A stretch of 35,246 bases of DNA from a virus, in UHGV virus genome UHGV-0095853. One strand, 5' to 3'. The position numbers and the translations under genes are program-made. A model generated the notes under the pieces. That model searched no databases, was not told the origin of the DNA, and was given only the letters and a program-made list of their open reading frames with translations. Positions 91 to 33,055 of this stretch are shown here, in pieces; position 1 is the stretch's first letter, and every line of letters begins with the position of its first letter.

Positions 91-116
91 AAACGCCGCT
101 ACTGCGGCGTTTTTTA
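91..116. terminator. Bidirectional intrinsic terminator at the 3' end of dam
   Basis: GC-rich hairpin (acgccgc / gcggcgt, loop tact) flanked by an A-run on one side and TTTTT on the other; overlaps the dam stop codon. Confidence 0.5.
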
Positions 117-1019
117 CTTCATTATTGCAATTATATCGTTAGCAACTACACGTGTTGACGCCTTGCAGGAAACCGACCGTCTGGCTGCCATATGATGTAC
201 TTTAAACCCGTTTCCTTCATATAGTTCACGGATGTTTGGAGCACCACTATTTGTTATCACTACCTTAGCGCCGCGCTGGTGGGCATCCACCAACAGTGAT
301 ACAAGCCGTTTTTGTTCATCGAAACGGAAGCTATTTCCTGAATAGCTGGTAAATCCCTCTGTATCCGGAAGCGGTTCATACGGCGGATCACAAAAAATCA
401 CATCGTCTTCACCAGCCGCCTCGATGACGCTAGCAAAGTCTCCTGATACAAAGGAAGTGTTTTTGAGTACGTCATCAGCCAAAAATGCCTCCATCTCTGC
501 ATGTGGGAAGTAGGGCGCTTTGTATTTGCCATACCCCACGTTGAACTCGCCATTTTGGTTGTACCGCGTTACGCCATTAAAACAGTGACGATTAAGGTAC
601 AAAAATGCGGCAGCATGATGTAGCTGGTCATATTTTCCTCTGTTAAATGCCTCACGCACTTCGAGGTAAGCGTCAGCGTTGTTGTAATTTTTGAAAAAAC
701 TATATGACAGCGTGACGAGCGAATGTCCTTCTCGCTGCAATGTCTGATAGAAGTTAATCAGGTCACCGTTAATATCATTAAGCAGGTTGTGGCGAAATCC
801 TGCATTCGTAAATACGGAACCGCCACCAACGAATGGTTCTATTAACCGCTTACCGTGTGGTAGATGCTCAAGCACTGTAGGCAATTCTGAGAATTTACCA
901 CCTACCCATTTGAATATCGGACGCTCATATTCATCCGGAGTCCGAATGGTGCGCATATAGCTAATTTCAGCCATCGTATCCTGTTTTTCTATGGCTATGC
1001 TTGCTATAGATTTACTCAT
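114..1019 (-). CDS. dam: DNA adenine methyltransferase, Dam family (N6-A, probable GATC specificity)
   Basis: Motif I FVGGGSV and motif IV DPPY; collinear with E. coli Dam along its length; start taken at ATG 1019 (MSKS...), overlapping the upstream stop. Confidence 0.85.
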   Translation of the reverse strand: MSKSIASIAIEKQDTMAEISYMRTIRTPDEYERPIFKWVGGKFSELPTVLEHLPHGKRLIEPFVGGGSVFTNAGFRHNLLNDINGDLINFYQTLQREGHSLVTLSYSFFKNYNNADAYLEVREAFNRGKYDQLHHAAAFLYLNRHCFNGVTRYNQNGEFNVGYGKYKAPYFPHAEMEAFLADDVLKNTSFVSGDFASVIEAAGEDDVIFCDPPYEPLPDTEGFTSYSGNSFRFDEQKRLVSLLVDAHQRGAKVVITNSGAPNIRELYEGNGFKVHHMAARRSVSCKASTRVVANDIIAIMK

Positions 1020-1692
1020 AGAGCACCCCCTTATTCGCTTCGAAAACTGCCTTTGCGAATCCATGTGGAGTAGCACTTCGGAAATTAGCCCTGTCAGGCC
1101 CTGGTGGCGCGGCATGGATTCTGTTATCTGGCTTGCCTAATGATTCGTCCATTAGGGCATCAGGCATGACAAAGCCCTGGCCGCTCCAGAGGCATGTTTT
1201 TTTGGTGTAGTTATCTTCCTGACAATATGCAGTGAAGAAGTAAGGGTGAAAGATGTGATCTGGCTTACGCCAGAATGTCGATATTTTGCTGACCGGATTT
1301 TCAATCATGTACGGACAACCGATCATCTTTGCAATGTCATAACACTGCCAGACAACCTGCATTGCTTTGAACTGGAAAACCGGATCTTTATTAGCCTTGT
1401 CCGAAAACCAGCGCGCGCCGGAAACAGCCAGGTCAGTACACGGTGGGAACCCGGCCAGAAACACGATGCGCTGCAAATTCTTACGGAGAAAAGCGTATAC
1501 TTCATCGCTATCGATGATCGCACTAATACGCGTCAGAACGGCACCTGATTGCATCCGCTCGTCACTGGTCGATAAGTGCTGTGGATCGACGATAGCGGCA
1601 TCGACACCGTATTCCAGCCAGGGGGCAACCATTGCCCCCGTAAAATCACAAAGACTCACAACAAGCGGTCGGTTATTATCGTTCTGCTTCAC
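1012..1692 (-). CDS. Short DNA (cytosine-5)-methyltransferase-like protein (226 aa), tentative
   Basis: GFPPC (motif IV-like PC dipeptide) and ENPV (motif VI-like); GTG start at 1692 with GGAGG 10 nt upstream; translationally coupled to dam; no obvious target-recognition domain. Confidence 0.5.
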
Positions 1693-2581
1693 CGCCAATG
1701 GCCTCCACCAGCGCGTTAAACAGTGCAGATAATTCGCCCGTAAAGAGCACGAAATCAGCATCAAATCGTTGTGCTACATCCTCCCGGTCGATATCGTCGT
1801 TCTGGTCATAGAGATCATCACAGAATGTCAGGGCTTTGATACTCATATCATCGTTGACTCTGAACGACGCACGGTCCATCCAGTTAATTGCAACGGTCGT
1901 AGCTACTTTCCCCGCCTCAATGTGAGACATAATCTCGTCGGACTGTAGATCAACTTTGTTGCAGCGAACGGCACCACCATTATCGAGCAGACCCTTTAAT
2001 GTGGCGTCTTCACCTGCTGTAAATCCGGCAGGGAAGCCGCTTTTAAACCACTCGGTCATTGTAATTTCCAGCGGTTCGCGTGGTGTGAATGGAATGACAG
2101 GCAGGCTGCCGAGCGACTTTCGCAATAAAGCCAGCTGGTCCTCTGCCTTTTTGGCGCTGCTTGCCTCAACGAATACCAGATGGTTGCTGCGGTCGATCAG
2201 GATTTTGGCGAGTGATTTTCTCGTGAACGCGCGAGGCAAAAGTGAATGCAGGACTTCATCTTTAAGACTGTCTCTTTCCGTTTTCTTCAGCTTGCGGGCT
2301 TGCTCTTCTTCGAGTTTCAGGACTTTTTTCTGCAACTCTTCCTTGAGCACCTGCGAGGGGAGAATTTTTTCTTCTCGCTTATGCTGTATTAGCAGAAAAC
2401 CCTGGTATTCATGGGTGAGGTTGTCACCAAGAACAGGTGTCCAACCGACTTTAGCTGTGTCCTGAGAACCGCAAGGAGTAAACACGAATTTGCTAAGAGC
2501 ATCGGATACTTCTGCGGCACTCCAGTTAACTTCACGTGAAAGACGATAGATGAAGATGTTTTTGAAAGCGACTGATCTCAT
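1676..2581 (-). CDS. rdgC: Recombination-associated protein RdgC homologue (P1 HrdC-like)
   Basis: Full-length collinearity with E. coli RdgC ([58 protein letters not shown]). Confidence 0.85.
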
Positions 2582-2587
2582 GTTTCA

Positions 2588-2631
2588 CCAATTGTGTTAG
2601 AAAATTCTATTCAATTATCTAACACAATTGG
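2588..2631. promoter_or_regulatory. Perfect 14-bp inverted repeat (CCAATTGTGTTAGA / TCTAACACAATTGG, 16-bp spacer) ending 7 nt before the rdgC start codon
   Basis: Read directly; arms carry the recurrent TGTGTTAGA operator core; not followed by a U-run so not a terminator. Confidence 0.5.
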
Positions 2632-2640
2632 ATGTGTTTT

Positions 2641-3294
2641 CTATCCCTTCTTGAAATCAAAGTTGCTTGCGATAGCCTGGAAGGTGCCTCCAGCCTTGAA
2701 ATCAATATTTTCGTCGGCTGTCACAGTAATGTTTTTGCCATTAACGCTGATGTTATCGGCTGATTTGACGTTAACACTCCCTCCCGCATTCACTACTACA
2801 TCAGCCGGACCAATGATGTATATCTGCCCTGATTCATTCATTCCAATCCTTGAGCCTGCTGCCGTATTCGCTATTTCATATCCACCGCCAGCCGTTCGCA
2901 CTTCGAGCACATTGTTGCGGTGAATCACGAAATCTTTTGTCGCCGAAAATTGCGGGCGGGGAGGCGCTCCGTCTACTTCTGGTGGCGTCCAGCCGCTACC
3001 ATTGCCTGACGCCTCCGGCGCGACGTTTGGTACTCCGCCAGGCGCATCCTGAGCTGCGCCAACTATCATTGGGCGTCTGGTATCAATTCGACCATTAACA
3101 TCCAGATAAGGAAACTCTACCCATACCAGGTCGCCTTTTACTGTAGGTACAAACGCGTTACCTATGGGTAACAGGTATTCTGCCCAGGGTAGATCGTCAT
3201 CAGGAACGCCATTCCAGTCTGGTAAAACACGGACCTGAGCACGCATAAGCCCTGCCGGGTGCACAGTTCCAACAATTTGCGCTCTACGCTTCAT
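2641..3294 (-). CDS. Phage protein of unknown function; N-terminal OB-fold-like region and C-terminal Gly/Asn-rich beta-repeat resembling gpV/gp45-type baseplate spikes (tentative)
   Basis: VRVLPDWNG..LPWAE..VKGDLVWVEF pattern then VNAGGSVNVKSADNISVNGKNITV repeats; ATG overlaps upstream stop (ATGA). Confidence 0.55.
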   Translation of the reverse strand: MKRRAQIVGTVHPAGLMRAQVRVLPDWNGVPDDDLPWAEYLLPIGNAFVPTVKGDLVWVEFPYLDVNGRIDTRRPMIVGAAQDAPGGVPNVAPEASGNGSGWTPPEVDGAPPRPQFSATKDFVIHRNNVLEVRTAGGGYEIANTAAGSRIGMNESGQIYIIGPADVVVNAGGSVNVKSADNISVNGKNITVTADENIDFKAGGTFQAIASNFDFKKG

Positions 3295-4271
3295 TTGTTC
3301 GGCACTCCCAATATCATTCGTGTTGTGTAGCCTACGCGGTCTTCAAAGTGCGCAACATTTTTTACTATCAGCTTACGGGGCATTGATTCATCAATGCGGT
3401 TTTCCTGGTCATAGCGGTATACGATAATCTCTATCACCATCCCCGGTTTTATATCAGGATTGCCTGCGACTTCTATATCCATTTTGGGGACGAGAGACAG
3501 CTGCATATTGCGAAGAGTTTCCATATCAGAGTCGGATATATAACGCACTGGGAGTGAGCTATCGCCATATTCGACGTAGCCATCGGTCATGGAATACCCA
3601 ACAAAACGATATTGATTCTTTGCTGTTGTCGCATGTTCCTGTTGGAGTAGGCGCATTTTGGACAAAGTGTATTCTGCTTTAGGGTTATTCCCCTCGTAGG
3701 TAAATGATGGCGTTTGCTTCATCAGATCAGCCAGGGTGTAAAAGTTAAATTCCCCCCGGCATACCCAACATAATGCACCTTTGTCTCGCGCTATCTCCGA
3801 AAGCATTTTTGACGGTTTGTCACCGGCATTCAGATGATATGTAACTGCGCGTTTTAGCACGCTGCTGGTAATTTTAAGCTTGCCGGAATATGCCTTGAAT
3901 ATAGCGTCTGGTGTTTTGTTGGTATGTAAATTTGTGCGCGGGGAGGGGATCTTAAACCTGCGCACGTCTTCACTGACAGCAATAACGGTAACAACATCAC
4001 CAGCCAGCATTGCAGACGTAACAAAGAAATCTGTTTTAAAAGTGCCTGCATTACCGTTTGGATCGCCCATTTCAGCCACCAGCGATGCACCGTATTTGGC
4101 TTTCCAGTCATCAATTACGGTGCCGGTAGCGTCATGAATTTCCAGTTTTAGCAAAGGGGCTTTGAGGCTGGTTTTTTCTACATATACTGCGGTAAAAATC
4201 CAGTCTCGTGGCACTTTGTTATCGTTAATGAGCACTGACTGTAGAAAATATTGTTGTAACTCCTGGGCCAC
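3291..4271 (-). CDS. Hypothetical protein (326 aa)
   Basis: Long ORF, GTG start 4 nt after upstream stop, co-oriented in a 4-gene operon. Confidence 0.6.
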   Translation of the reverse strand: MAQELQQYFLQSVLINDNKVPRDWIFTAVYVEKTSLKAPLLKLEIHDATGTVIDDWKAKYGASLVAEMGDPNGNAGTFKTDFFVTSAMLAGDVVTVIAVSEDVRRFKIPSPRTNLHTNKTPDAIFKAYSGKLKITSSVLKRAVTYHLNAGDKPSKMLSEIARDKGALCWVCRGEFNFYTLADLMKQTPSFTYEGNNPKAEYTLSKMRLLQQEHATTAKNQYRFVGYSMTDGYVEYGDSSLPVRYISDSDMETLRNMQLSLVPKMDIEVAGNPDIKPGMVIEIIVYRYDQENRIDESMPRKLIVKNVAHFEDRVGYTTRMILGVPNK

Positions 4272-4274
4272 TTA

Positions 4275-5042
4275 TCACCCCATAGATATCGAGGTTTCGG
4301 TAATAATACGTTTTGCGTCCAACTCCCATGCTGTGATCACGTCTGCAATCACACTTATCGGCGCTTGTGTGGCATAAATACGCTCTTCTCCAATTGGTGC
4401 TGAAACATCCGTAAAGCCGACTTCTTTGGCATCCTGTATCGAGCAAATCAGCGGGACCGGGACACGAACAAGGTGAGTGGTTGCTTCAAATTGTGTACCT
4501 GTCATCAGGCGAAGCCGTGCGCCCAGCGAATTACACATCAGACTCATGGTCGCTTTATCAGTTGCCATTAACGTAACGTCATACGTCAGAATGGCCTGGG
4601 TGTATTCCAGTTCTGCTAAAGGCATTCCGGTATCCGGTTCGCAAAAACTGGCTACTTTTTTGCGGTCAATCTGCTGATCATCGTTGATATAATTGATATC
4701 CATATTGCGTGAGATATTGACCAGGGGGAGAGCATCCCGGTTAATGTTCTGGTTTTCAGGTTTTCTCCCTTGCCCGGTATTTGCGCGACGAACTGCTTTA
4801 AGAAACTCGATCGCATTGTCGAAACGGGCCACATAGACACGCTCTGCTGGTGGACGATTCAGGAATGACGCAAAGCGTTTTTCTTCCGGCGCGGGGGCCA
4901 CCAGTAAGATATCAGAAAAAATGTTGCTGATTAGCGTCGCAAACGCGTTATCCACGTTTTCAAAGCCCGTGGTCTGGAATTTTCCTGTGCGTGAGGTTTG
5001 CCATTCACCTGTTCGTGCCAGGAGGGTTTTATTTGAAGTCAT
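4275..5042 (-). CDS. Hypothetical protein (255 aa)
   Basis: Long ORF with ATG overlapping upstream stop (ATGA). Confidence 0.6.
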   Translation of the reverse strand: MTSNKTLLARTGEWQTSRTGKFQTTGFENVDNAFATLISNIFSDILLVAPAPEEKRFASFLNRPPAERVYVARFDNAIEFLKAVRRANTGQGRKPENQNINRDALPLVNISRNMDINYINDDQQIDRKKVASFCEPDTGMPLAELEYTQAILTYDVTLMATDKATMSLMCNSLGARLRLMTGTQFEATTHLVRVPVPLICSIQDAKEVGFTDVSAPIGEERIYATQAPISVIADVITAWELDAKRIITETSISMG

Positions 5043-5830
5043 TCGATCACTCCGTTTTGAGTCGTATCAAAATTTCTGGCAGGTATGCAGTAGTAAAGCG
5101 AACCAACATGCTGTGTGCCGTAGCTAAAAATACGGTGCACGTACCACCAGCGGCGGGCTACGCCGTTTACCATCTCTTCATTCCATTCAAGAATTGAGCC
5201 GACGGGGACGTTATTTGCTGCAATACGCAGAATCAGAACATCATCGGTTAAGCCATCCTGCTCACCGTCTGCGTCAATCGCATGGAAAGAGTCACGCCCG
5301 TCAGGGTTATCCAGCACATAAACGATTTCAGGTTCCTGGTAAGTCAGTTCGCGTTGGTTGTTATCCAGTTCAGTGAATGACTCTTCTCCTGTTTCGTCGC
5401 TGACTACCCCATATGTGCCAACATCTGGTCGATATAAGAGAGCCTGAAACGCGTCTGGGCTGGATTCAATAATCAGCATCCAGTCTGCGCGGATTTGGTC
5501 ATTAAAGGCTTTATGCCCGTTATAGCGTGCTTTTAACTGTGGAGTCGGTTCTCTGCCAGCCAGGGAAGGTGGAAGTATGGCTATATCTGATTCGCCAGCG
5601 TCCGGAGTAAGGCCACCGTTGCTATCAGCAAAATTATCATGGCTATCAGCTTCGGCGGTGGATTGCTCTTCCAGAATGCTGAATGAATCCGGTCCGGCAT
5701 TGCCATGTTCCGGCGCGCTTCCTGCATCCGCTTCAACCGTCGCTGGCGTTTCTCTCTGCGTGCTGTCATGTTCTGACTCCTTACTTGCCAGGTTTGCATC
5801 GTCAGCAAACCATTCGTCAAAACGGCCCAT
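5039..5830 (-). CDS. Hypothetical protein with acidic low-complexity N-terminal half
   Basis: ORF 5039..5872; preferred start ATG 5830 (MGRFDEW) with GAGG 6 nt upstream. Confidence 0.55.
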   Translation of the reverse strand: MGRFDEWFADDANLASKESEHDSTQRETPATVEADAGSAPEHGNAGPDSFSILEEQSTAEADSHDNFADSNGGLTPDAGESDIAILPPSLAGREPTPQLKARYNGHKAFNDQIRADWMLIIESSPDAFQALLYRPDVGTYGVVSDETGEESFTELDNNQRELTYQEPEIVYVLDNPDGRDSFHAIDADGEQDGLTDDVLILRIAANNVPVGSILEWNEEMVNGVARRWWYVHRIFSYGTQHVGSLYYCIPARNFDTTQNGVIE

Positions 5831-5906
5831 AAGCATCCTCAAAGGTCGATTTATCAGGTATCGAGGGTGCATTGTCTGGAGATTGTGATTTCAATTCATA
5901 TCCCAG

Positions 5907-5951
5907 CATGGGACTAAAGTGCTTTACATTGTCCCATATCGGGACTACTAT
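5907..5951 (+). promoter_or_regulatory. higBA promoter with overlapping inverted repeat (ATGGGAC ... GTCCCAT), probable HigA operator
   Basis: TTTACA (5922-5927) / TACTAT (5946-5951) hexamers; inverted repeat 5907-5913 / 5930-5936 brackets the -35. Confidence 0.45.
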
Positions 5952-5975
5952 ACTTTCAGCGAGAAGGAATCTGTG

Positions 5976-6278
5976 ATGAAAATAATTTCGGTAAAAACAC
6001 TAAGGGATTTCTGGGCGAAGAATCCCGATGCAGAACAGCCATTAAAGGCATGGGTTGATGAAGCAACAAAGGCTGACTGGAAAAATCCGGCTGAGATCAA
6101 AGAACAGTACCGGACAGCCAGCATCCTTAAAAACAGGCGCGTGGTGTTCAATATTAAGGGAAATGATTACAGGTTAATTGTCGCAATTGCTTATCAGCGA
6201 GGATGGATGTTCGTTAAGTTTATTGGAACACATAAGGAATACGATGCCATTGAAGCGGATACAATAGAACTGGAGTAA
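5976..6278 (+). CDS. higB: Type II toxin HigB-family (RelE-fold mRNA interferase)
   Basis: About 100 aa; FNIKGNDYRLI and FIGTHKEYD signatures; directly followed by an HTH antitoxin. Confidence 0.75.
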   Translation: MKIISVKTLRDFWAKNPDAEQPLKAWVDEATKADWKNPAEIKEQYRTASILKNRRVVFNIKGNDYRLIVAIAYQRGWMFVKFIGTHKEYDAIEADTIELE

Positions 6279-6281
6279 ATC

Positions 6282-6641
6282 ATGAACATTAAACCTATCC
6301 GTACAGAACAAGATTATGAGGCCGCACTGCGTGCGGTCGAACCGATGTTCGATAACGAACCGGAAATGAACACACCGGAAGGCGATTTCTTTGAAGTAAT
6401 GTGCCTGCTCATTGAAGAGTACGAGAAAAAGCATTACCCAATTGAGCCACCATCACCTATTGAAGCCATTAAATTCCGTATGGAACAGCAAGGGCTGACC
6501 GTGAAGGATCTGGAACCGGCGATTGGTAAGTCAAATCGTGTTTACGAAGTGCTAAATGGGACACGAAATTTAACGTTACCTATGATTCGTCGTTTACATT
6601 CCCAGTTTGGCATTCCTCTTGAAAGCCTGGTTGGTGTATGA
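6282..6641 (+). CDS. higA: HigA-family antitoxin (XRE-type HTH)
   Basis: C-terminal HTH (LTVKDLEPAIGKSNRVYEVLNGTRNLTLPMIRRL); 3-nt gap after higB. Confidence 0.75.
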   Translation: MNIKPIRTEQDYEAALRAVEPMFDNEPEMNTPEGDFFEVMCLLIEEYEKKHYPIEPPSPIEAIKFRMEQQGLTVKDLEPAIGKSNRVYEVLNGTRNLTLPMIRRLHSQFGIPLESLVGV

Positions 6642-6645
6642 GTTT

Positions 6646-6672
6646 GGCGGTCTGTATGACCGCCTTTGTTGT
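6646..6672 (+). terminator. Intrinsic terminator after higA
   Basis: Hairpin ggcggtc-tgtat-gaccgcc followed by TTTGTTGT. Confidence 0.6.
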
Positions 6673-6675
6673 CAA

Positions 6676-7872
6676 TCAAGAACCTTTCTTCACGTACTCC
6701 ATAAACATTTTTTCAGCTTGCTCAGGTGACGTTCCTGCCATGACCAGTGCATCAATGAACGCTTGCTTCTTCAGTGCGAATTGATCGGCAAGGCGTTGCT
6801 GAAGCTCCTTGTTTTTCTGTTTCTCACGTTGCAAGGCTGCTTCTTTTGCTGCTGCCCGTTTTTTCTGTGCATCGGACAACTTTCTGGCCCTGGTCAGCTG
6901 GTCACGTAGCTTGTCAATCTTCCCGTTGTCCTTTGCCAGTTTTGTGCTTAAAGCGGCCTGGCGTTTCTGATAGAGCCTCCATTCGCGCTTGGCGGCTTCA
7001 ACGTTCGTTTTACTGCTACGATTGCGATTAAACTCCTTCTCGTCTTCTTTTGAGAAGTGTTTAGTTGTACGGCGGCGATCGTCACCAAATGCAATTTGCG
7101 TTGCGGCCTTTTGTAACGCACGAGCAATACTCATTTGCCAACTGGCGGACTGTAACCGCGTCATTGAGTGGATCACGTGTTTACAGGCGACGCCTTGTAG
7201 CTTAGGGTTACGAACTTTTGGATAGGCGTATTCTTTTGGCGGGGCCAGGGCAAAGTTACCCGCAGTAGCGATGTAACGATACCAGTATTGATGACGACCA
7301 CAGTCACAATCGAAAGACACCCGCCCGGCGCACAGTGATTTAGTGATTTTCAGAGCTGATTTATCGTCTTCTGCGATGTCATCGACCATCTGATCCCATT
7401 CTTCAAAGCGTATCCGGACGATATGGTGCTGGTGGACGGATATATCCGATGCTTCTACGCGGATATTAATCACGTTGTGGCGAAGAGATACAGGTGTAGC
7501 TCTTTTGATACCAGATCCGTCATCCACGGCGTTATTTGCACGCTTAATATCGATTGCCTGGCTGGATGCCACCAGCTGGGCGTATGTGATGCCAGCCGTC
7601 TTGCTGTCATATTTTTCGCGTGTTTTACTCCGTAGCTTTTCGAAACCTTTCAGGTCGTCTCGCGTGAAGAACGTGCCGCCTTTTTTCTTCCCTAACTTGA
7701 GAATATCTTCGGCGGATTTGTTCCTCAGTCTACCTGGCGTCAGCGTCCGGTGAGCTTGTCGGCGCTTACGGGTTTGTTCTTTCCTGATAAGGTCGAATAA
7801 ACGCGTGAAGTCCTTAGAGGACAGGCCGTCAGTGATATAGCGCCCGTCCTGGTTTTTCAGGAAATCAGGCAT
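6676..7872 (-). CDS. SWIM-type zinc-finger protein with Lys/Glu-rich C-terminal coiled coil; function unknown
   Basis: CxC...CxH motif (FDCDCGRHQYWYRY...GVACKHV); C-terminal 130 aa heptad-like K/E/Q-rich; GGAG 8 nt before ATG; overlaps upstream gene by 8 nt. Confidence 0.55.
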   Translation of the reverse strand: MPDFLKNQDGRYITDGLSSKDFTRLFDLIRKEQTRKRRQAHRTLTPGRLRNKSAEDILKLGKKKGGTFFTRDDLKGFEKLRSKTREKYDSKTAGITYAQLVASSQAIDIKRANNAVDDGSGIKRATPVSLRHNVINIRVEASDISVHQHHIVRIRFEEWDQMVDDIAEDDKSALKITKSLCAGRVSFDCDCGRHQYWYRYIATAGNFALAPPKEYAYPKVRNPKLQGVACKHVIHSMTRLQSASWQMSIARALQKAATQIAFGDDRRRTTKHFSKEDEKEFNRNRSSKTNVEAAKREWRLYQKRQAALSTKLAKDNGKIDKLRDQLTRARKLSDAQKKRAAAKEAALQREKQKNKELQQRLADQFALKKQAFIDALVMAGTSPEQAEKMFMEYVKKGS

Positions 7873-8194
7873 TTTCTATCTCCGGTTCCGCGCTTGCGTA
7901 ATCACGGATCTTGTTCCTCAGCCATGCCACATCAGGAAGAGTTAACGTGGTCCCTGCGGGCATTTCTTCCATTTCTGACTCATGGCCCACCAGCACCCGG
8001 AATACCCAGCGCAAATCTGCATTGCCATACGCCCTGTAGGCTGCAAGGTCTGAACGATATACTTCATCAATCTTTATCGTGTACTGGAAATTATCAGAGT
8101 GATACTCCGATACCCGCTTAATCATTTCCTGGTGAAACAGCGCACGAAAAATATCGTCTTCAATGTACCTATCGTCGAGTCTGCTATAGCCCAT
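7865..8194 (-). CDS. Hypothetical protein (109 aa)
   Basis: ATG with GAGAGG 8 nt upstream; translationally coupled to the SWIM protein gene. Confidence 0.55.
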   Translation of the reverse strand: MGYSRLDDRYIEDDIFRALFHQEMIKRVSEYHSDNFQYTIKIDEVYRSDLAAYRAYGNADLRWVFRVLVGHESEMEEMPAGTTLTLPDVAWLRNKIRDYASAEPEIENA

Positions 8195-8387
8195 AACAAA
8201 GCCTCTCAGTCATAACCTGGGGGAAACTGTATGCAGGGTGTGAAATGCGAGAAACAGACAGGCCACCAGTTCAGGGGGATGTGGTTCATAAATCCCCTCA
8301 CTGGTGACAAGTGACTTTCATTAATCTTTATGCGGGGGCCAGCTTCATTTGCTGGCATTAGATTAAAAATTAAACGGAGTGAATGAC

Positions 8388-11990: not shown

Positions 11991-12031
11991 AAATGGTTAG
12001 ATATTCAAAATTGATTTTCTAACACAAAACA
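11991..12031. promoter_or_regulatory. Inverted operator pair (GTTAGA-N17-TCTAAC) in the divergent ref / DUF4406 promoter region
   Basis: GGTTAGATA at 11995-12003 and TTTTCTAACAC at 12015-12025, followed by a TAATAT -10-like hexamer. Confidence 0.45.
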
Positions 12032-16021: not shown

Positions 16022-16063
16022 AAATGTGTTAGAACATTGATTTTAGTTTTCTAACATATTATT
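16022..16063. promoter_or_regulatory. Inverted operator pair (GTTAGA-N15-TCTAAC) upstream of gene 16099
   Basis: TGTGTTAGAAC at 16025-16035 and TTTTCTAACATA at 16047-16058, then TATTAT. Confidence 0.45.
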
Positions 16064-23281: not shown

Positions 23282-24376
23282 TCATTCAATGATTTTTTCG
23301 GCTGTCAGCCAGCTAATTTCGTGCCTGTCTTTCGGCGGTTTTAGCATGTGAGCATATTCAGCGACATGCTCCCACGGAATTGTTTTTGCCCACTCAACGA
23401 TAGCATTGTGATCTGCAGTGAAGAGTGGAATAGTGTGCGATTTCAACCATTCTAATGTCGTGACGCCATGTTTTTTGGCGTGGTGCTGCGCATGATGCCG
23501 GGCTATCACTCGTAATGGCATTGTCCATTCACTACCATCAGGCATCGAAAAGCGCATTGTCTTCGGCATATCTGATTCAAGAACAGCCTCCCTAATACCA
23601 GGGAACTCACCAAGAATCATACGACGATAGTCATCACTATTTCGCCCGCCATACCTTTCGGCAAAATGATCAAGATATTCTTGGGTAATAAATGGTGAAT
23701 CCTCCGCACTCAGCTTAATGGCTTTATATACACCACTCGGATTATCTTCAGCTAAAGCACGTCCATGATGTGAATCATAAAAAAAGCCTATTTCCTCTGG
23801 TGACGGAATTGAAGTGAGCAATATGCGTGAATCACCACTAGTCATGCTTGCCCACACAATGCTGTATGCCCGATCGCTGATATGTGCGGAATCCACAATA
23901 ATGAATAAAAGATGGTCGGCGTAGTGACCTGCAATGCTATCTTCATAGTTAAGGCGGTAGTTACAAAAGCACATTCCCCAAAATTCATTGAACATCAGAC
24001 CGCTATCACCGACCTTAAAATACTCAATGATAAAAGGTTGTTTTTTCAGCAATGCCTCCCAACATTGCCACACATATGCAACAATTCCTCTTTTGCAAAC
24101 ATTTGATTTTGGATAAACAATTACTGTCCGGGAATCAGGATACATAATCGTATAAAGGGTACTAATAACAGCAAGCACTTGCGGTCGTCCGATCCCATAC
24201 GGAGTGGTGACAGTAGCTTTTGCATTATTGGGCTGTATAGCTTCAACAATTTGTTGTTGCTGGTGGCTTAAATCAATATCAAACAATTCTTTTGCTGCCA
24301 GTACCCAATTGTCTTTATATTTCTCCACCAGCGACAGCCAGCGCGGATCTTTATAAATATTGCTCTTAGTCGCCAT
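23282..24376 (-). CDS. Terminase large-subunit (PacB) paralogue with degenerate Walker A and B motifs, lacking the C-terminal nuclease region
   Basis: Collinear with the N-terminal two-thirds of PacB at 29676..31184 (DPRW, SHQQQ, FYDSHH, DNP.G, SPF.T, YGGR); Walker A TSGHGTGKSS replaced by TTPYGIGRPQ; Walker B LILDEA replaced by IIVDSA; ATG 24376. Confidence 0.65.
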   Translation of the reverse strand: MATKSNIYKDPRWLSLVEKYKDNWVLAAKELFDIDLSHQQQQIVEAIQPNNAKATVTTPYGIGRPQVLAVISTLYTIMYPDSRTVIVYPKSNVCKRGIVAYVWQCWEALLKKQPFIIEYFKVGDSGLMFNEFWGMCFCNYRLNYEDSIAGHYADHLLFIIVDSAHISDRAYSIVWASMTSGDSRILLTSIPSPEEIGFFYDSHHGRALAEDNPSGVYKAIKLSAEDSPFITQEYLDHFAERYGGRNSDDYRRMILGEFPGIREAVLESDMPKTMRFSMPDGSEWTMPLRVIARHHAQHHAKKHGVTTLEWLKSHTIPLFTADHNAIVEWAKTIPWEHVAEYAHMLKPPKDRHEISWLTAEKIIE

Positions 24377-25133
24377 CTGCCACTTCCTTAACTTCTTCTT
24401 TGGCCTGTTCTGCAATCGCCGCACGGCATTTCGCCCTGGCTGTAGCGATTGCTTCAGCTCGCACATCGTCTGGAATCGTTGACGTGATATACATATCCAG
24501 TTCTTCGGCACGGAATACTGTTTGGTCCAGATATTCGCGTAGCATCCAGGTAAATTCGAAATCACACGCGATAATCTCTGCGCTACCTTCTGCACCATTT
24601 GGGAAATGAATAAATGCCTGTTTAGCCAAACCGATAACACGACATGCGGTTGCCAAAACAGCGACAACCAGGTTTACATTTTCACACGCTACGGGCTGAT
24701 TAACGCCGGAGATTACTCCATTTAACTGTCGGTTATATGGAAGGTAGTTTGAGATGCGTTCTACGCGCCATGTGCCAGTCAGGCTGCCATTTTTAAAGAT
24801 AATTGGTGTAACGGATAGCCCAAGCTCGCGTATAAGTCGTTGCGCTATAGCAGGATCATTAAACAGGTCTAATGCTACACATTCGAAAGACTGCGCAAGG
24901 GCAAACAGTTCTTCCAGAGAGTAGTCTTTGCCCCTGGCGGTGATGTAACGACGAACGCCGCTGTCTGCATCACTCCATATAGCTACGCCATGCTCTTCAT
25001 TCAGCTCTTCATTAAAGCCGAGATACGTCATGATAGTGCGTTCAATCGTGTCAAACGGCAGTGACATGTCGGCGTTAACAGCCACCAGCAGGCCATTACG
25101 CAAGCGGTATTGAATTGTTTTAGTGCTTTCCAT
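24366..25133 (-). CDS. Hypothetical protein (255 aa)
   Basis: ATG with GGAG upstream; overlaps downstream gene by 11 nt. Confidence 0.55.
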   Translation of the reverse strand: MESTKTIQYRLRNGLLVAVNADMSLPFDTIERTIMTYLGFNEELNEEHGVAIWSDADSGVRRYITARGKDYSLEELFALAQSFECVALDLFNDPAIAQRLIRELGLSVTPIIFKNGSLTGTWRVERISNYLPYNRQLNGVISGVNQPVACENVNLVVAVLATACRVIGLAKQAFIHFPNGAEGSAEIIACDFEFTWMLREYLDQTVFRAEELDMYITSTIPDDVRAEAIATARAKCRAAIAEQAKEEVKEVADGD

Positions 25134-27179: not shown

Positions 27180-27196
27180 GATGTGTTAGAAATTTA
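27180..27196. promoter_or_regulatory. Single operator-like site GATGTGTTAGAAATTTA between the recombinase stop and the dut operon
   Basis: Matches the recurrent TGTGTTAGAAA core. Confidence 0.4.
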
Positions 27197-28581: not shown

Positions 28582-28598
28582 TTATGTTAGAAAACTAA
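28582..28598 (+). promoter_or_regulatory. Operator-like site TTATGTTAGAAAACTAA about 25 nt upstream of gene 28613
   Basis: Near-identical to the site at 11355-11371. Confidence 0.4.
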
Positions 28599-29654: not shown

Positions 29655-29683
29655 AAGCCCCGCATTGCCGGGGCTTTATATAT
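29655..29683 (+). terminator. Terminator-like hairpin after gene 28613..29650
   Basis: Stem aagccccg / cggggctt with loop cattgc, then TATATAT. Confidence 0.45.
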
Positions 29684-31184
29684 CCAGATCTGGCATTTCC
29701 ACATCTGCAAGAACCTGATCGCGGAAGGTAGCCATTTCAGCGCCGATATCTTCATTAGCAGGAACATAGTCCACCAGCATTGTAAAGCAGTAGGTATCCC
29801 ATCGGTCAGGTGATTTGATGTTCAGCTTTTGCCGCATGTGCTCCTTGCGCATCATCGCCATCTTCCCTTCTTCATTAAGTAAAAAGGGGATTTTTGACGC
29901 TTGCTCTGCCGTTTTAGGGTCACTGTCTATTCGCATACGACCTGACTTTATGGCATCACGAGCCATAATATTTGCGTAGGCACGCTGGTTAACAAAACGC
30001 TCCTTGTCTTTGTTCGAAAACATGGGTTTCCCCCACCGAATCCGTACCGGATTAGCCCCACGGCGCACCAGCTGCGCACAGGTATCTGAACCAAAACCGT
30101 CTGCGTCAACCGCGATTGTAATATTCGGGTATTTATCCGGCGTGCATTCGTTGTATATAAAGTCAGCAAAAGCCAGCGGGTCCATAGTCCCTGGCATTTC
30201 CATTACCTTAAAGTTAACAACACGCCGCTTTTCCCGGTGACCAGACACTTTACAGATATTAAGAACTGACTTGTCTCGCCCGTTACCAACGTCAGCAGTA
30301 GCCACCCATCCCCAGTTTTTCTCCAACAACACCTTGCGCCGCGCAGCGCGATCGCATTCATCACGACCAAGCAAATAGCCGTTAATCTCCCGAGGAAACT
30401 GACCAAGAACCTTGACCATGTACTCAATAGAATCGCGCCCGCCATATTCCAGGAGTTTCTGCCTGATGAATTGTGGTGTGACGAACGGTGATTCTTCTGA
30501 GTTAAGAACAATTGCTGTCCAGATCCCTTTCGGGTTGTCTGGGGTTTTAGCTTGAGAATGGTGCGAATCGTAGAAATAACCACTTGGCCTTGTTGGCTGG
30601 GATAGCATCAACATTCGGTTATCTTCTTCAGTCAGAGCGCCAGTCATTACGCCGATCGCTTTATCAGATATACCTGATGCTTCATCCAGAATTAGAAGCA
30701 AATGTGCCGCGTGCTCCCCCGCCAGAGCTTCTTCGTTACCGAGTCGATAGCCTTTGCAGAGAACTTCCCAGATCCCCTTTCGAGAGCGTTCATAAAACAT
30801 GGTGTCAGACAGGACAAAATAGGTCTGTAACCACCCATGACGCTTAACGGCATTCGCCCAATACTGTTTAACGTATTTGAATACACCTGTCTTAACCTGA
30901 CCTATTTTGTTAGCAACAATGATGACACGGGCATCGGGGAACAGAATCAAATAAATCAGCAACAACATAGCCGTTAGCGACGATTTCCCTGTACCGTGAC
31001 CAGAGGTAACAGTGGTTCTGCTCCCTTTTTGCTGTACGGACTGGATAATCTCCTGCTGCTGGTGGGAGGGAAACATCCCGAATATATCAACAACAGCCTG
31101 GGTAAAGTTGTAGCGGTATTTGATTACCATATCGCGCCAGCGTGGATCGCTGGTGACGCATTTAATCTTGCGCCCACCAGCCAT
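29676..31184 (-). CDS. pacB: Terminase large subunit (PacB-like)
   Basis: Walker A TSGHGTGKSS, Walker B LLLILDEA; 502 aa; directly downstream of the small-subunit gene with 1-nt overlap. Confidence 0.8.
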   Translation of the reverse strand: MAGGRKIKCVTSDPRWRDMVIKYRYNFTQAVVDIFGMFPSHQQQEIIQSVQQKGSRTTVTSGHGTGKSSLTAMLLLIYLILFPDARVIIVANKIGQVKTGVFKYVKQYWANAVKRHGWLQTYFVLSDTMFYERSRKGIWEVLCKGYRLGNEEALAGEHAAHLLLILDEASGISDKAIGVMTGALTEEDNRMLMLSQPTRPSGYFYDSHHSQAKTPDNPKGIWTAIVLNSEESPFVTPQFIRQKLLEYGGRDSIEYMVKVLGQFPREINGYLLGRDECDRAARRKVLLEKNWGWVATADVGNGRDKSVLNICKVSGHREKRRVVNFKVMEMPGTMDPLAFADFIYNECTPDKYPNITIAVDADGFGSDTCAQLVRRGANPVRIRWGKPMFSNKDKERFVNQRAYANIMARDAIKSGRMRIDSDPKTAEQASKIPFLLNEEGKMAMMRKEHMRQKLNIKSPDRWDTYCFTMLVDYVPANEDIGAEMATFRDQVLADVEMPDLDI

Positions 31185-32548
31185 TAGTCATCCTCCGGCG
31201 GTTCTATCGCAATATCATCATCTCCGGCGTCATACCCTGCATCTGATGCATCATAATCACCGTAAATTTCAGCCGTTGCCGAAGGGTCAATGTCCAACTC
31301 TTCATCGTTGGCCTCGAATTCCCCAGCCTTACGCTCGCCATTGTGGTCGTAATCTCCGCACCCCAGATCTTCAACAATGGTTGCCACATCCGCCCGGCGC
31401 TCTGCCAGCCATTGCGGATGGTTAGCCTGAAGCGATGCAAACTCCTTCGCTTCTTTGTCCAGCTGTTCATCATCAACATCATTGATGTCAGAAACTGGAG
31501 GTTCGAGAAGAGTGATAGCTTTCGCCGCGCGCGCCGCGAGGATAGCCGGGACACTGACACCCTGACGCTCGATGTATTCAGCAACACCGATATCGTCCAG
31601 CTCCTCGCGCTCACGCATACGTATAGCGGCGGCGATAACTCTGGCTGCGCGTGCGTCAGCGCCAATGCGATATTCAATCTCTTTGCCACGCTGTTCGGCC
31701 TGTAGGCGTGCTAATTCGAGTTTTTCTCTGGCCTCGGCCTCTCTGAATGCTTGCTGGCGAGCACCCTGACGAAGTTTTTCATCACCCTGTCGCAGCTTTT
31801 GTTCGGACTGATATATCGCTGCCAACCTACTGATAAAATCGTTCATGTAGTAGGCCGCGTCACTGATTAGACCGAGAAGTCGCTGCCCAGGGTGCATTCC
31901 TTCTGGCTGTTCATCACCCAGGGCGTCTATCTCCGCCTGTAGGCGTTCGGCCTCCTGATCAACAATGCTTTGGTACTGAAGTGCGCGTTCTTGCGCCATT
32001 TGAATTGCTAACCGCAGGTGCTCTTCTGCGCCGTTCTTCATCATGTCGCGAGCCACACTCGTAGTGGGCAACGTGGCACGCTGCACAGCACCGCCAGGGA
32101 TCATTGCTGAAGATCCCTCGATTTTTGAGGCGCATTTATCTTCGGTGGGGATCATTTTCGCCATTTTTTCGCGCAATGATCTCCTGACAGATTCTTTTAT
32201 CTCATTGTTATTATTGTCGTTATTTTTATGATCCGAAGTTTTCTTTCTCGGCATGCTCCGGAAAGAACTTCCGCTCTGTGAATTGTCAGTTTCTGTAAAT
32301 TTTGTTGTTTCTGTACCCTCTTCTGGCCTTTTTTTTGCTCTTCCTGCCCGTTTTTTTTCAGGTGATTTGGTGCTTTTTTTTGTAGTCTTCACCTGCGACC
32401 GCACCTCATTTTTTTTCATATTGAGATGCTTTCTGGCGGTATTGAAGCTAAGGTCGTGTTGCTCGCAGTATTCCTTTACGGTGATCCCTTTTTCTTCACG
32501 CAACGCTATAAATTTGGCGCGGTGCTCTTCCCAATTAACAAGGCTCAT
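31184..32548 (-). CDS. pacA: Terminase small subunit (PacA-like)
   Basis: N-terminal HTH-like segment (ITVKEYCEQHDLSFNTARKHL); position upstream of pacB; contains GATC-hexamer cluster; long acidic C-terminus. Confidence 0.7.
   Translation of the reverse strand: MSLVNWEEHRAKFIALREEKGITVKEYCEQHDLSFNTARKHLNMKKNEVRSQVKTTKKSTKSPEKKRAGRAKKRPEEGTETTKFTETDNSQSGSSFRSMPRKKTSDHKNNDNNNNEIKESVRRSLREKMAKMIPTEDKCASKIEGSSAMIPGGAVQRATLPTTSVARDMMKNGAEEHLRLAIQMAQERALQYQSIVDQEAERLQAEIDALGDEQPEGMHPGQRLLGLISDAAYYMNDFISRLAAIYQSEQKLRQGDEKLRQGARQQAFREAEAREKLELARLQAEQRGKEIEYRIGADARAARVIAAAIRMREREELDDIGVAEYIERQGVSVPAILAARAAKAITLLEPPVSDINDVDDEQLDKEAKEFASLQANHPQWLAERRADVATIVEDLGCGDYDHNGERKAGEFEANDEELDIDPSATAEIYGDYDASDAGYDAGDDDIAIEPPEDD
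32099..32233. other. Candidate pac (packaging initiation) site: five GATC-containing hexamers within 135 bp inside pacA
   Basis: GATC at 32099, 32112, 32150, 32178, 32230 with AT-rich tracts between; about 0.5 expected by chance. Confidence 0.4.
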
Positions 32549-33010: not shown

Positions 33011-33055
33011 TGTTATATTAGAAAATTAATTCCATTCATCTAACACTACCAGCGA
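33011..33055. promoter_or_regulatory. Inverted operator pair (TTAGA-N16-TCTAAC) upstream of the lpa-like gene
   Basis: ATTAGAAAATTAA at 33015-33028 and TCTAACAC at 33039-33046. Confidence 0.4.

Follow-up and report, generated by a model that had tools for sequence, protein, structure and literature searches.

The stretch of DNA analysed here (the window: all 35,246 nucleotides of UHGV virus genome UHGV-0095853) carries four genes on the minus strand at 2641-5830, flanked on one side by an rdgC gene and two methylase genes, and on the other by a toxin-antitoxin cassette and two further phage genes. The features are as follows:

114 to 1115: gene of a D12-class adenine methylase (E 7e-57).
1012 to 1764: gene of a putative cytosine methylase, after the annotation of D6 orf64 (no Pfam match here).
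1676 to 2581, minus strand: gene of the RdgC family, homologue of P1 hrdC (Pfam RdgC, E 5e-103; D6 orf65, 'similar to P1 gene hrdC'), outside the virion module.
2588 to 2631, no strand: perfect 13-bp inverted repeat (CCAATTGTGTTAG, 18 nt, CTAACACAATTGG), candidate operator.
2641 to 3294, minus strand: gene of the P1 gp5 homologue (217 aa), predicted trimeric central spike without lysozyme domain.
3291 to 4271, minus strand, GTG start: gene of the P1 gp6 homologue (326 aa), predicted trimeric baseplate hub of the T4 gp27/Mu gp44 type.
4275 to 5042, minus strand: gene of the P1 gp24 homologue (255 aa), predicted hexameric, T4 gp15-like tail terminator.
5039 to 5830, minus strand: gene of the P1 gp7 homologue (263 aa), predicted hexameric stopper (head-completion protein) of the head-tail connector; the open reading frame runs from 5872 (277 aa from the first ATG).
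5976 to 6641, plus strand: cassette of a HigB toxin gene (5976-6278; Pfam HigB_toxin, E 3e-34) and an HTH antitoxin gene (6282-6641; HTH_3, E 3.5e-5).
6676 to 7872, minus strand: gene of the P1 gp25 homologue (398 aa; phrog_1722, E 8.5e-197; D6 orf74, 'similar to P1 gene 25').
7865 to 8194, minus strand: gene of the P1 gp26 homologue (109 aa; phrog_1269 'baseplate wedge subunit', E 2e-36; D6 orf75, 'similar to P1 gene 26'), predicted baseplate plug.

An earlier note, made from the DNA letters, had described four co-oriented, translationally coupled genes upstream of rdgC, and this layout holds: all four are compactly arranged on the minus strand, and their junctions are as tight as claimed. 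The stop and start codons overlap in an ATGA, with GGAG upstream, between genes 7 and 24; a gap of 3 nt separates genes 24 and 6; and a second ATGA, with 4 shared nt and GGGAG upstream, joins the hub gene to the spike gene that it directly precedes. The four genes are packed for coupled translation. For the first gene, the end coordinate given earlier (5830) was right, whereas the length of 277 aa belongs to the longer open reading frame. Translation almost certainly begins at the ATG at 5830, which yields a 263-aa product: this codon is preceded, at a distance of 5 nt, by GAGGA, the D6 annotation places the start of its gene 7 homologue at the same ATG, a 263-aa database protein that stands for 705 member sequences is 100% identical to the product, and the PHROG match starts at residue 14 of the 277-aa frame. 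Judging by their protein-level conservation (22-46% identity to P1) and by the kept gene order, the four frames are real genes and not chance ones.

The block is 96.5% identical at the DNA level, over 3224 bp and across its whole length, to orf69-orf66 of Escherichia phage D6 (MF356679 / NC_050154), which are annotated as 'similar to P1 gene 7, 24, 6, 5'. D6 is a P1-like plasmid prophage, and it carries the same four genes in the same order, with hrdC (RdgC) and two methylase genes downstream and the homologues of genes 25 and 26 upstream. Over its first 25 kb, the window is 100% identical to the 93.1-kb E. coli plasmid NZ_CP135715.1; D6-type phage-plasmids are commonly found in E. coli and Salmonella. 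A Pfam scan of the four proteins found no family above threshold, the sole weak match being DUF2345 on the spike, so that, judged by Pfam alone, they would have stayed 'unknown', as the earlier note called them. They are nevertheless annotated in D6, all four belong to PHROG 'tail' families (E 1e-42 to 1e-144), and all four match chains of solved P1 structures (PDB 9ums, 8jan, 9vzk).

The four proteins share both homology and synteny with P1 gp7, gp24, gp6 and gp5, and from these matches and the evidence detailed below we propose with great confidence that they are, in this order, the stopper, the tail terminator, the baseplate hub and the central spike. First, the 263-aa protein matches P1 Gp7 in sequence searches (PDB 9ums_B, E 6.8e-43; 46% identity over 158 aa, E 3e-49) and the family phrog_1906, 'tail protein' (E 1e-115). 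Its AF2 model matches the same P1 connector chain (9ums_B, E 4.8e-14, TM 0.68 on target) and, weakly, the stopper of phage 812 (probability 0.89), and the layout of its helix (107-123) and beta-strands agrees with the published description of the P1 protein (PMC12810830). The N-terminal 85-95 residues or so are acidic and predicted to be disordered, and precede the helix and a beta-sandwich; about 95 N-terminal residues were modelled with low confidence, and of the 242 residues of the P1 protein likewise only 158 are modelled. The acidic N-terminal extension, which begins GxFD, is common to both stoppers and is not resolved in the maps of P1; a separate function within the DNA channel is conceivable for it. 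As P1 gp7 is the hexameric stopper of the head-tail connector (PMC12810830), its homologue would, by analogy, form a hexameric ring contacting the adaptor and the terminator. The record label 'tail protein' for the 263-aa product is hereby corrected to connector stopper.

Second, the 255-aa protein shares only 22% identity with P1 gp24 (E 2e-18), but is strongly matched to it in both profile and fold. Searched against the PDB, the single sequence matched 8jan_y ('Gp24') at E 5e-14, and a profile of 22 sequences did so at 7e-33, the match spanning about 233 of the 255 positions. The AF2 model (pLDDT 76, pTM 0.71) matches 8jan_A (TM 0.79, E 5e-21), then T4 gp15 (4hud, 4huh, 9mkb; E about 1e-6, probability 1.0), and also the terminators of T5, Pam3, Bas63 and pyocin R2. 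P1 gp24 is the hexameric tail terminator, which caps the tube and the sheath at the head-proximal end (PMC10304247), and the record label 'baseplate' for the 255-aa protein is corrected to tail terminator.

Third, the 326-aa protein matches P1 Gp6 over almost its entire length (PDB 9vzk_1, E 7.6e-72, residues 6-325 against 16-337; 38% identity over 321 aa, E 3e-84) and phrog_1390 (E 3e-144), and it is 99.7% identical to its D6 counterpart. P1 gp6 is the trimeric baseplate hub (PMC12810830). Searches of the PDB (phmmer, E<=1) and Pfam (E<=0.1) with the protein found here did not reach T4 gp27, Mu gp44 or Phage_GPD; its kinship with T4 gp27 and Mu gp44 is suggested by the HHpred result that was published for P1 gp6 (99% to both; PMC9024508). 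The label 'tape measure', which several records give to this 326-aa protein, was rejected on the basis of its length, P1 gp6 having been argued to be too short for a tape measure (PMC9024508), and of the hub structure (PMC12810830).

Fourth, the 217-aa protein, which the earlier note had found to be spike-like, is borne out as a spike with an N-terminal domain and a C-terminal repeat of the beta-helix type by its match to P1 gp5 (46% identity over 201 aa, E 4e-64; PDB 9vzk_q 'Gp5', E 5.4e-54, residues 2-202 against 7-203), with which it is collinear (210 aa in P1). It matches phrog_430, 'baseplate hub subunit and tail lysozyme' (E 7.5e-42), only at profile positions 20-252 of 868, and Pfam detected no lysozyme family. 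This partial cover and the total of 217 aa indicate that the spike has no lysozyme domain between its N-terminal domain and its beta-helix, like P1 gp5, a T4-gp5-like trimeric spike devoid of that domain (PMC12810830, PMC9024508). Direct sequence searches of the PDB and Pfam did not reach T4 or Mu proteins; they gave weak matches to the spike chains 7b5h and 7aef of contractile injection systems, and to DUF2345 (VgrG C-terminal; E 0.0055, below the curated cut-off). The latter, together with the P1 structure (PMC12810830), suggests that the spike would be a trimer combining an OB-fold with a triple-stranded beta-helix.

The present data establish the homology of all four proteins to P1 proteins, the conserved gene order and the agreement of folds for the two most divergent proteins. 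The lengths here and in P1 are 263/242, 255/261, 326/338 and 217/210 aa for the products of genes 7, 24, 6 and 5, respectively. In P1, all four counterparts were placed in the virion by cryo-EM (PMC10304247, PMC12810830), and gp6, gp24 and gp7 were detected in purified virions (PMC9024508). That the four proteins are instead non-structural or unrelated to the virion, either as an injection effector or as a system tied to RdgC and the methylases, is extremely improbable. Such a reading could draw on the Pfam result and on the fact that DNA-metabolism genes follow immediately downstream, no terminator lying in between, but it would have to explain away the matches to chains built into the P1 virion maps, an order shared with P1, where the block does not adjoin hrdC, and a gap to rdgC endowed with its own promoter-like and operator-like signals. 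Among the options left earlier (structural, injection-related or unrelated), structural is the correct one. Three of the four genes themselves encode components of the tail or the baseplate, and the remaining one encodes the stopper, which is the head-tail joint.

With similarly high confidence, we regard the region as part of the P1-type virion gene block 26-25-7-24-6-5, namely its 3' two-thirds, in a D6-like E. coli phage-plasmid. Its order and orientation are conserved with P1, as judged by the D6 annotation, the P1 record and the PHROG matches for 25 and 26. The earlier claim that no other tail genes lie nearby is literally true for the sheath and the tube only, since the homologues of gp25 and of the plug gp26 are found 0.85-2.4 kb upstream. 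P1 gp26 is the six-fold baseplate plug (PMC12810830), while P1 gp25 gave a weak LC-MS/MS signal in the virion proteome (PMC9024508) and is not mentioned in the P1 structure paper PMC12810830. Tail genes are scattered in P1-type genomes. A comparison with P1 upfB/upfC/uhr had also been suggested, but it points to genes other than those of the block: in D6, upfB and upfC have homologues of their own (orf56/57) elsewhere, outside the region of the window, and in P1 these two encode the tripod and the tip of the spike (PMC12810830). This comparison was therefore rejected.

The virion positions and stoichiometries carried over from the P1 cryo-EM papers imply that two products would act at the head-proximal end of the tail (stopper and terminator) and two at its distal end (hub and spike). 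Once the head is filled, the hexameric ring of the stopper would shut its portal-adaptor channel and present the docking surface for the tail, whereas the terminator hexamer would cap the last tube and sheath rings and bind the stopper. At the tail tip, the hub trimer would turn the six-fold tube into three-fold symmetry; beneath it, the spike, a trimer made of an N-terminal domain and a beta-helix needle, would be driven through the outer membrane by the contraction of the sheath. The same roles of spike, hub and terminator are played in contractile tails by T4 gp5, gp27 and gp15, and by Mu gp45 and gp44, the P1 spike resembling T4 gp5 and the P1 hub T4 gp27 and Mu gp44 (PMC9024508, PMC12810830); the spike described here differs in having no lysozyme domain. 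The block is an ordinary phage tail gene block that has already been described, being annotated in D6 and having P1 counterparts solved in atomic detail. It carries little weight as a discovery, and its practical value lies in the corrected annotation of the 326-, 255- and 263-aa proteins.

Regarding expression, the P1 record shows a late operon 26-25-7-24-6-5, with gene 26 first and the late promoter LP26. The six P1 genes are contiguous, genes 25 and 7 being 3 nt apart, and are followed by the convergent dbn-ban. In contrast, a 0.85-kb HigBA cassette on the opposite strand splits this ancestral order here, between genes 25 and 7. D6 has a different and larger cargo at the same junction (RelE, two HigA-like genes and orf73, instead of the HigB/HigA pair), and positions 5892-6274 of the window have no D6 match. 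The cassette possesses its own terminator at 6646-6664, the hairpin of which has no T-run on the minus strand and should therefore not stop read-through towards gene 7. A model of the P1 late promoter built from the eight promoters annotated in the P1 record (-22 box AAGTGACTT, N4, TANNNT; Lpa-dependent) was used to scan the window, and found no P1-type late promoter ahead of either gene 7 or gene 26 on their coding strand. The sole match in the window, at 8306-8327, was rejected as the late promoter of the block: it lies on the plus strand, pointing away from gene 26 and hence wrong for genes 26 to 5, and it is not better than matches in shuffled sequences. The block is not a contiguous set of genes under one P1-type late promoter. 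D6-type late promoters may differ from the P1 consensus, which would leave late expression possible. The block is presumably expressed late, like the LP26-driven operon of P1, which would require either read-through across the antisense HigBA cassette or a promoter of a type that the model does not recognise.

The interrupting cassette, the missing coding-strand match to the late-promoter model and the many P1/D6-like plasmids in databases that were never shown to be inducible could also mean that the element is a defective, plasmid-only remnant, in which the homologues of P1 structural genes are silent cargo. We consider this improbable: the four frames are intact and nearly identical to those of a deposited phage genome, as noted above for the DNA and for the hub protein; D6 itself has an insertion at the same spot; the terminase, the recombinase and other phage genes of the window are intact; and the hairpin after higA should let minus-strand transcripts pass.

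At the other end of the block, the 59 nt that separate the spike gene from rdgC contain the perfect inverted repeat of 2588-2631, which consists of two inverted copies of a recurrent motif, TTGTGTTAGAAAAT, and overlaps a sigma-70-like promoter found by a promoter scan (TAGAAA-18-GATAAT). The motif occurs at seven sites in the window, as compared with 0.32 expected from shuffles; all are intergenic, and one lies upstream of the homologue of ref. P1 ref is controlled by C1. Operators of P1 immunity were rejected, the P1 C1 operator consensus ATTGCTCTAATAAATTT having no site in the window at three mismatches or fewer. We propose that 2588-2631 serves as a bivalent C1-type operator combined with the promoter of the rdgC-methylase unit. 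An inverted pair of operator-like motifs placed over a sigma-70-like promoter suggests that rdgC and the methylase genes probably have their own repressor-controlled start, which makes the 'feeding into rdgC and the methylases' of the earlier note functionally doubtful. It is accordingly unlikely that the four genes, rdgC and the methylase genes form one obligatory transcription unit, with the expression of RdgC and the methylases depending on the structural operon. The common strand, the short gap and the absence of an intrinsic terminator-like site between 2641 and 2581 would suit a single unit, and late read-through could plausibly raise methylase levels during DNA packaging; yet, besides the operator-like repeat of a motif so enriched and its kin upstream of the ref homologue, the P1 hrdC-dmt genes are nowhere near 7-24-6-5. 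They are found about 8 kb away, behind upfB-upfC-uhr, indicating that the adjacency seen here is a lineage-specific rearrangement. The rdgC and methylase genes would rather be a separate repressor-controlled unit, which may also receive late read-through.

Tentative, and less probable than not, is the idea that the D6 lineage has rewired the late operon, the 25/7 junction being a site where toxin-antitoxin cargo is swapped, and the block being fused upstream of the repressor-controlled rdgC-methylase unit. In that case, transcription of the neck, hub and spike genes would run antisense through the toxin-antitoxin module, and the rdgC-methylase genes would receive both an early input, from their own operator-guarded promoter, and a late one, from read-through of the structural genes. 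A slot for toxin-antitoxin cargo within a late operon, together with the candidate operator of a D6-type repressor, offers cheap and testable hypotheses on gene control in D6-type phage-plasmids. The recurrent motif is related to, but distinct from, the P1 C1 operator consensus.

The four minus-strand genes at 2641-5830, which the earlier note had regarded as coding for unknown proteins, presumably because Pfam recognises none of the four, are in fact already known: they are annotated in the Escherichia phage D6, and their P1 counterparts are structurally solved. All four proteins belong to PHROGs tail families (E 7.5e-42 to 2.6e-144) and match chains of solved P1 structures, bearing out the structural option of the note, and their gene order is identical to that of P1 (7-24-6-5).

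Genes of the block in transcription order (ORF list), with PDB matches and identities from pairwise alignments
5039..5872, minus strand: gp7 (stopper) homologue, 277 aa counted from the first ATG; PDB 9ums (P1 Gp7), E 7e-43; 46% identity to gp7, over the C-terminal 158 residues only
4275..5042, minus strand: gp24 (tail terminator) homologue, 255 aa; PDB 8jan (P1 Gp24), E 5e-14; 22% identity
3291..4271, minus strand: gp6 (baseplate hub) homologue, 326 aa, GTG start; PDB 9vzk (P1 Gp6), E 8e-72; 38% identity
2641..3294, minus strand: gp5 (central spike) homologue, 217 aa; PDB 9vzk (P1 Gp5), E 5e-54; 46% identity

The Gp5 match shows that the 217-aa protein had been correctly read as spike-like from its N-terminal domain and Gly/Asn-rich beta repeats. 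The two weakest links, the 255-aa and 263-aa proteins, were tested further with profile and/or AlphaFold models. For the 255-aa protein, a profile built from 22 homologues matched P1 Gp24 at E 7e-33, and the model (pLDDT 76) superposed on the tail terminator of P1 at a TM of 0.79, the next matches being T4 gp15 and terminator proteins from T5, Pam3, Bas63 and pyocin R2. For the 263-aa protein, the model shows about 85 disordered N-terminal residues and then a helix plus a beta-sandwich; it matches the P1 connector's stopper chain (E 5e-14; TM 0.68 on the target).

Residues 1-95 of this stopper homologue (window 5545-5830, minus strand) form an acidic, predicted-disordered N-terminal extension, which opens with a conserved MGRFD..WF and has a pLDDT below 50 at residues 10-81. 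An equivalent acidic N-terminus is present in P1 gp7 (MAGFFDDMF...), of whose 242 residues only 158 are included in the modelled stopper chain (9ums_B).

Four lines of evidence make the ATG at 5830 the most probable start of the first gene, yielding a 263-aa product. First, a GAGGA sits 5 nt upstream. Second, the same start is used in the D6 annotation. Third, a 263-aa database protein representing 705 member sequences is 100% identical. Fourth, the PHROG match starts only at residue 14 of the long ORF. The coordinates of the note were therefore correct, whereas its "277 aa" is the longer ORF. The junctions are compact and co-oriented, as had been described: an ATGA stop/start overlap preceded by GGAG (first/second gene), a 3-nt gap followed by GTG (second/third) and an ATGA overlap preceded by GGGAG (third/fourth).

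In P1, gp24 is the hexameric tail terminator that caps the 53-ring tube and the sheath (PMC10304247). On the portal-adaptor sits gp7, a hexamer that acts as the stopper and docks onto gp24; the hub and the spike are trimers of gp6 and gp5, respectively, the spike being T4 gp5-like but devoid of the lysozyme domain; and gp26 is the baseplate plug (PMC12810830 for these four). The block therefore codes for two head-proximal tail parts and two tail-tip parts. Purified P1 virions contain gp6, gp24 and gp7, and gp6 has been shown to be too short for a tape measure (PMC9024508). The hub homologue (3291-4271, minus strand) is still named 'tail length tape measure protein' in many records of phages and plasmids, and the terminator homologue carries a 'baseplate' label in database records; both labels are errors propagated from old P1 genetics.

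Two further tail genes lie directly upstream of the block.

6676..7872, minus strand: gp25 homologue
7865..8194, minus strand: gp26 (plug) homologue

The observation made from the raw sequence is confirmed and its interpretation is partly right (structural, spike included), but the block is neither unknown nor isolated, and the premise of no further tail genes in the vicinity fails. The rest of the window harbors no further tail genes, but terminase, recombinase, dUTPase, HNH and similar genes; the sheath and tube genes fall outside it, the D6 sheath gene being about 12 kb away, and P1-type genomes are known to have their tail genes scattered (PMC9024508).

Of all genes in the operon, the one for the gp25 homologue (398 aa, no Pfam match) is the least understood, and published P1 virion maps give gp25 no assigned place. 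The Cys/His cluster of the homologue (FDCDCGRHQYWYRY...GVACKHV) recalls a SWIM-type zinc finger, and its Lys/Glu/Gln-rich C-terminus is coiled-coil-like by eye. Elsewhere in the window, phrog_5902 (PacB-like/large-terminase) is matched by two minus-strand ORFs, 23282-24667 (E 3e-164) and 29676-31184 (E 3e-150). The latter adjoins a PacA-like gene (31184-32548); the former looks like an extra paralogue with an uncertain start codon.

The block (3.2 kb) is 96.5% identical to D6, a circular, 91-kb P1-like plasmid prophage, where orf69-66 are annotated "similar to P1 gene 7, 24, 6, 5" and those immediately upstream as resembling P1 genes 25, 26 and mat. Over its first 25 kb, the window is 100% identical to a 93.1-kb E. 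coli plasmid; 24 plasmid records, mainly from E. coli and Salmonella, each cover at least 80% of this part.

The remaining points of interest are, besides the conserved acidic N-terminus of the stopper, regulatory: a cargo slot, an operator motif and the late promoter. In P1, 26-25-7-24-6-5 form a contiguous late operon behind LP26, followed by the convergent dbn-ban, and genes 25 and 7 are only 3 nt apart, whereas in the window an opposite-strand toxin-antitoxin cassette (5892-6663) separates their homologues.

5976-6278, plus strand: HigB
6282-6641, plus strand: HigA-like
6646-6664, plus strand: terminator of the cassette

Because D6 carries at the same place a different, larger toxin-antitoxin cargo (RelE, two HigA-like genes, orf73), the 25/7 junction looks like a cargo slot, a hot spot of cargo exchange within a late structural operon. 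The higA hairpin lacks a T-run on the minus strand, and transcription from upstream may therefore read through it.

Late expression of the block is what we infer by analogy with P1. A model built from eight P1-annotated late promoters (AAGTGACTT, N4, TANNNT) found a single site in the whole window, no better than shuffles, at 8306-8327 on the plus strand, hence the wrong strand for the block, for which the search gave no late promoter. This site, which falls between the homologues of gp26 and mat, is a perfect P1-type box (GACAAGTGACTT tcat TAATCT) that is conserved in D6; it is directed away from gene 26, toward small plus-strand ORFs (D6 orf77) and antisense to mat, and is followed by a GCCAGC/GCTGGC hairpin.

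Downstream of the block, rdgC and the methylase genes follow directly, whereas in P1 hrdC-dmt is located elsewhere, behind upfB-upfC-uhr.

1676..2581, minus strand: RdgC (Pfam, E 5e-103)
1012..1764, minus strand: matches the putative cytosine methylase of D6 by annotation
114..1115, minus strand: D12-class adenine methylase

The 59-nt gap between the block and rdgC holds no terminator-like site. Within it, two copies of TTGTGTTAGAAAAT make up a perfect inverted repeat of 13 bp, which overlaps a sigma-70-like TAGAAA-18-GATAAT. Allowing up to two mismatches, this motif, conserved in D6, has seven sites across the window (0.32 expected), all of them intergenic, upstream of rdgC (the inverted pair), the ref homologue, a pdcB-like HNH gene and other genes.

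Sites of TTGTGTTAGAAAAT
2592-2605, plus strand
2614-2627, minus strand
12014-12027, minus strand
16024-16037, plus strand
27181-27194, plus strand
28582-28595, plus strand
33013-33026, plus strand

The motif is similar to, but distinct from, the P1 C1 operator ATTGCTCTAATAAATTT, the consensus of which has no match in the window; P1 ref, the homologue of which is preceded by one of the sites, is under C1 operator control. Judging from sequence, we propose the motif as a candidate operator for the immunity repressor of the D6 type, and its inverted pair would guard rdgC's own promoter. Rather than belonging to the block, rdgC and the methylase genes would form a separate early unit, which may also receive late read-through.
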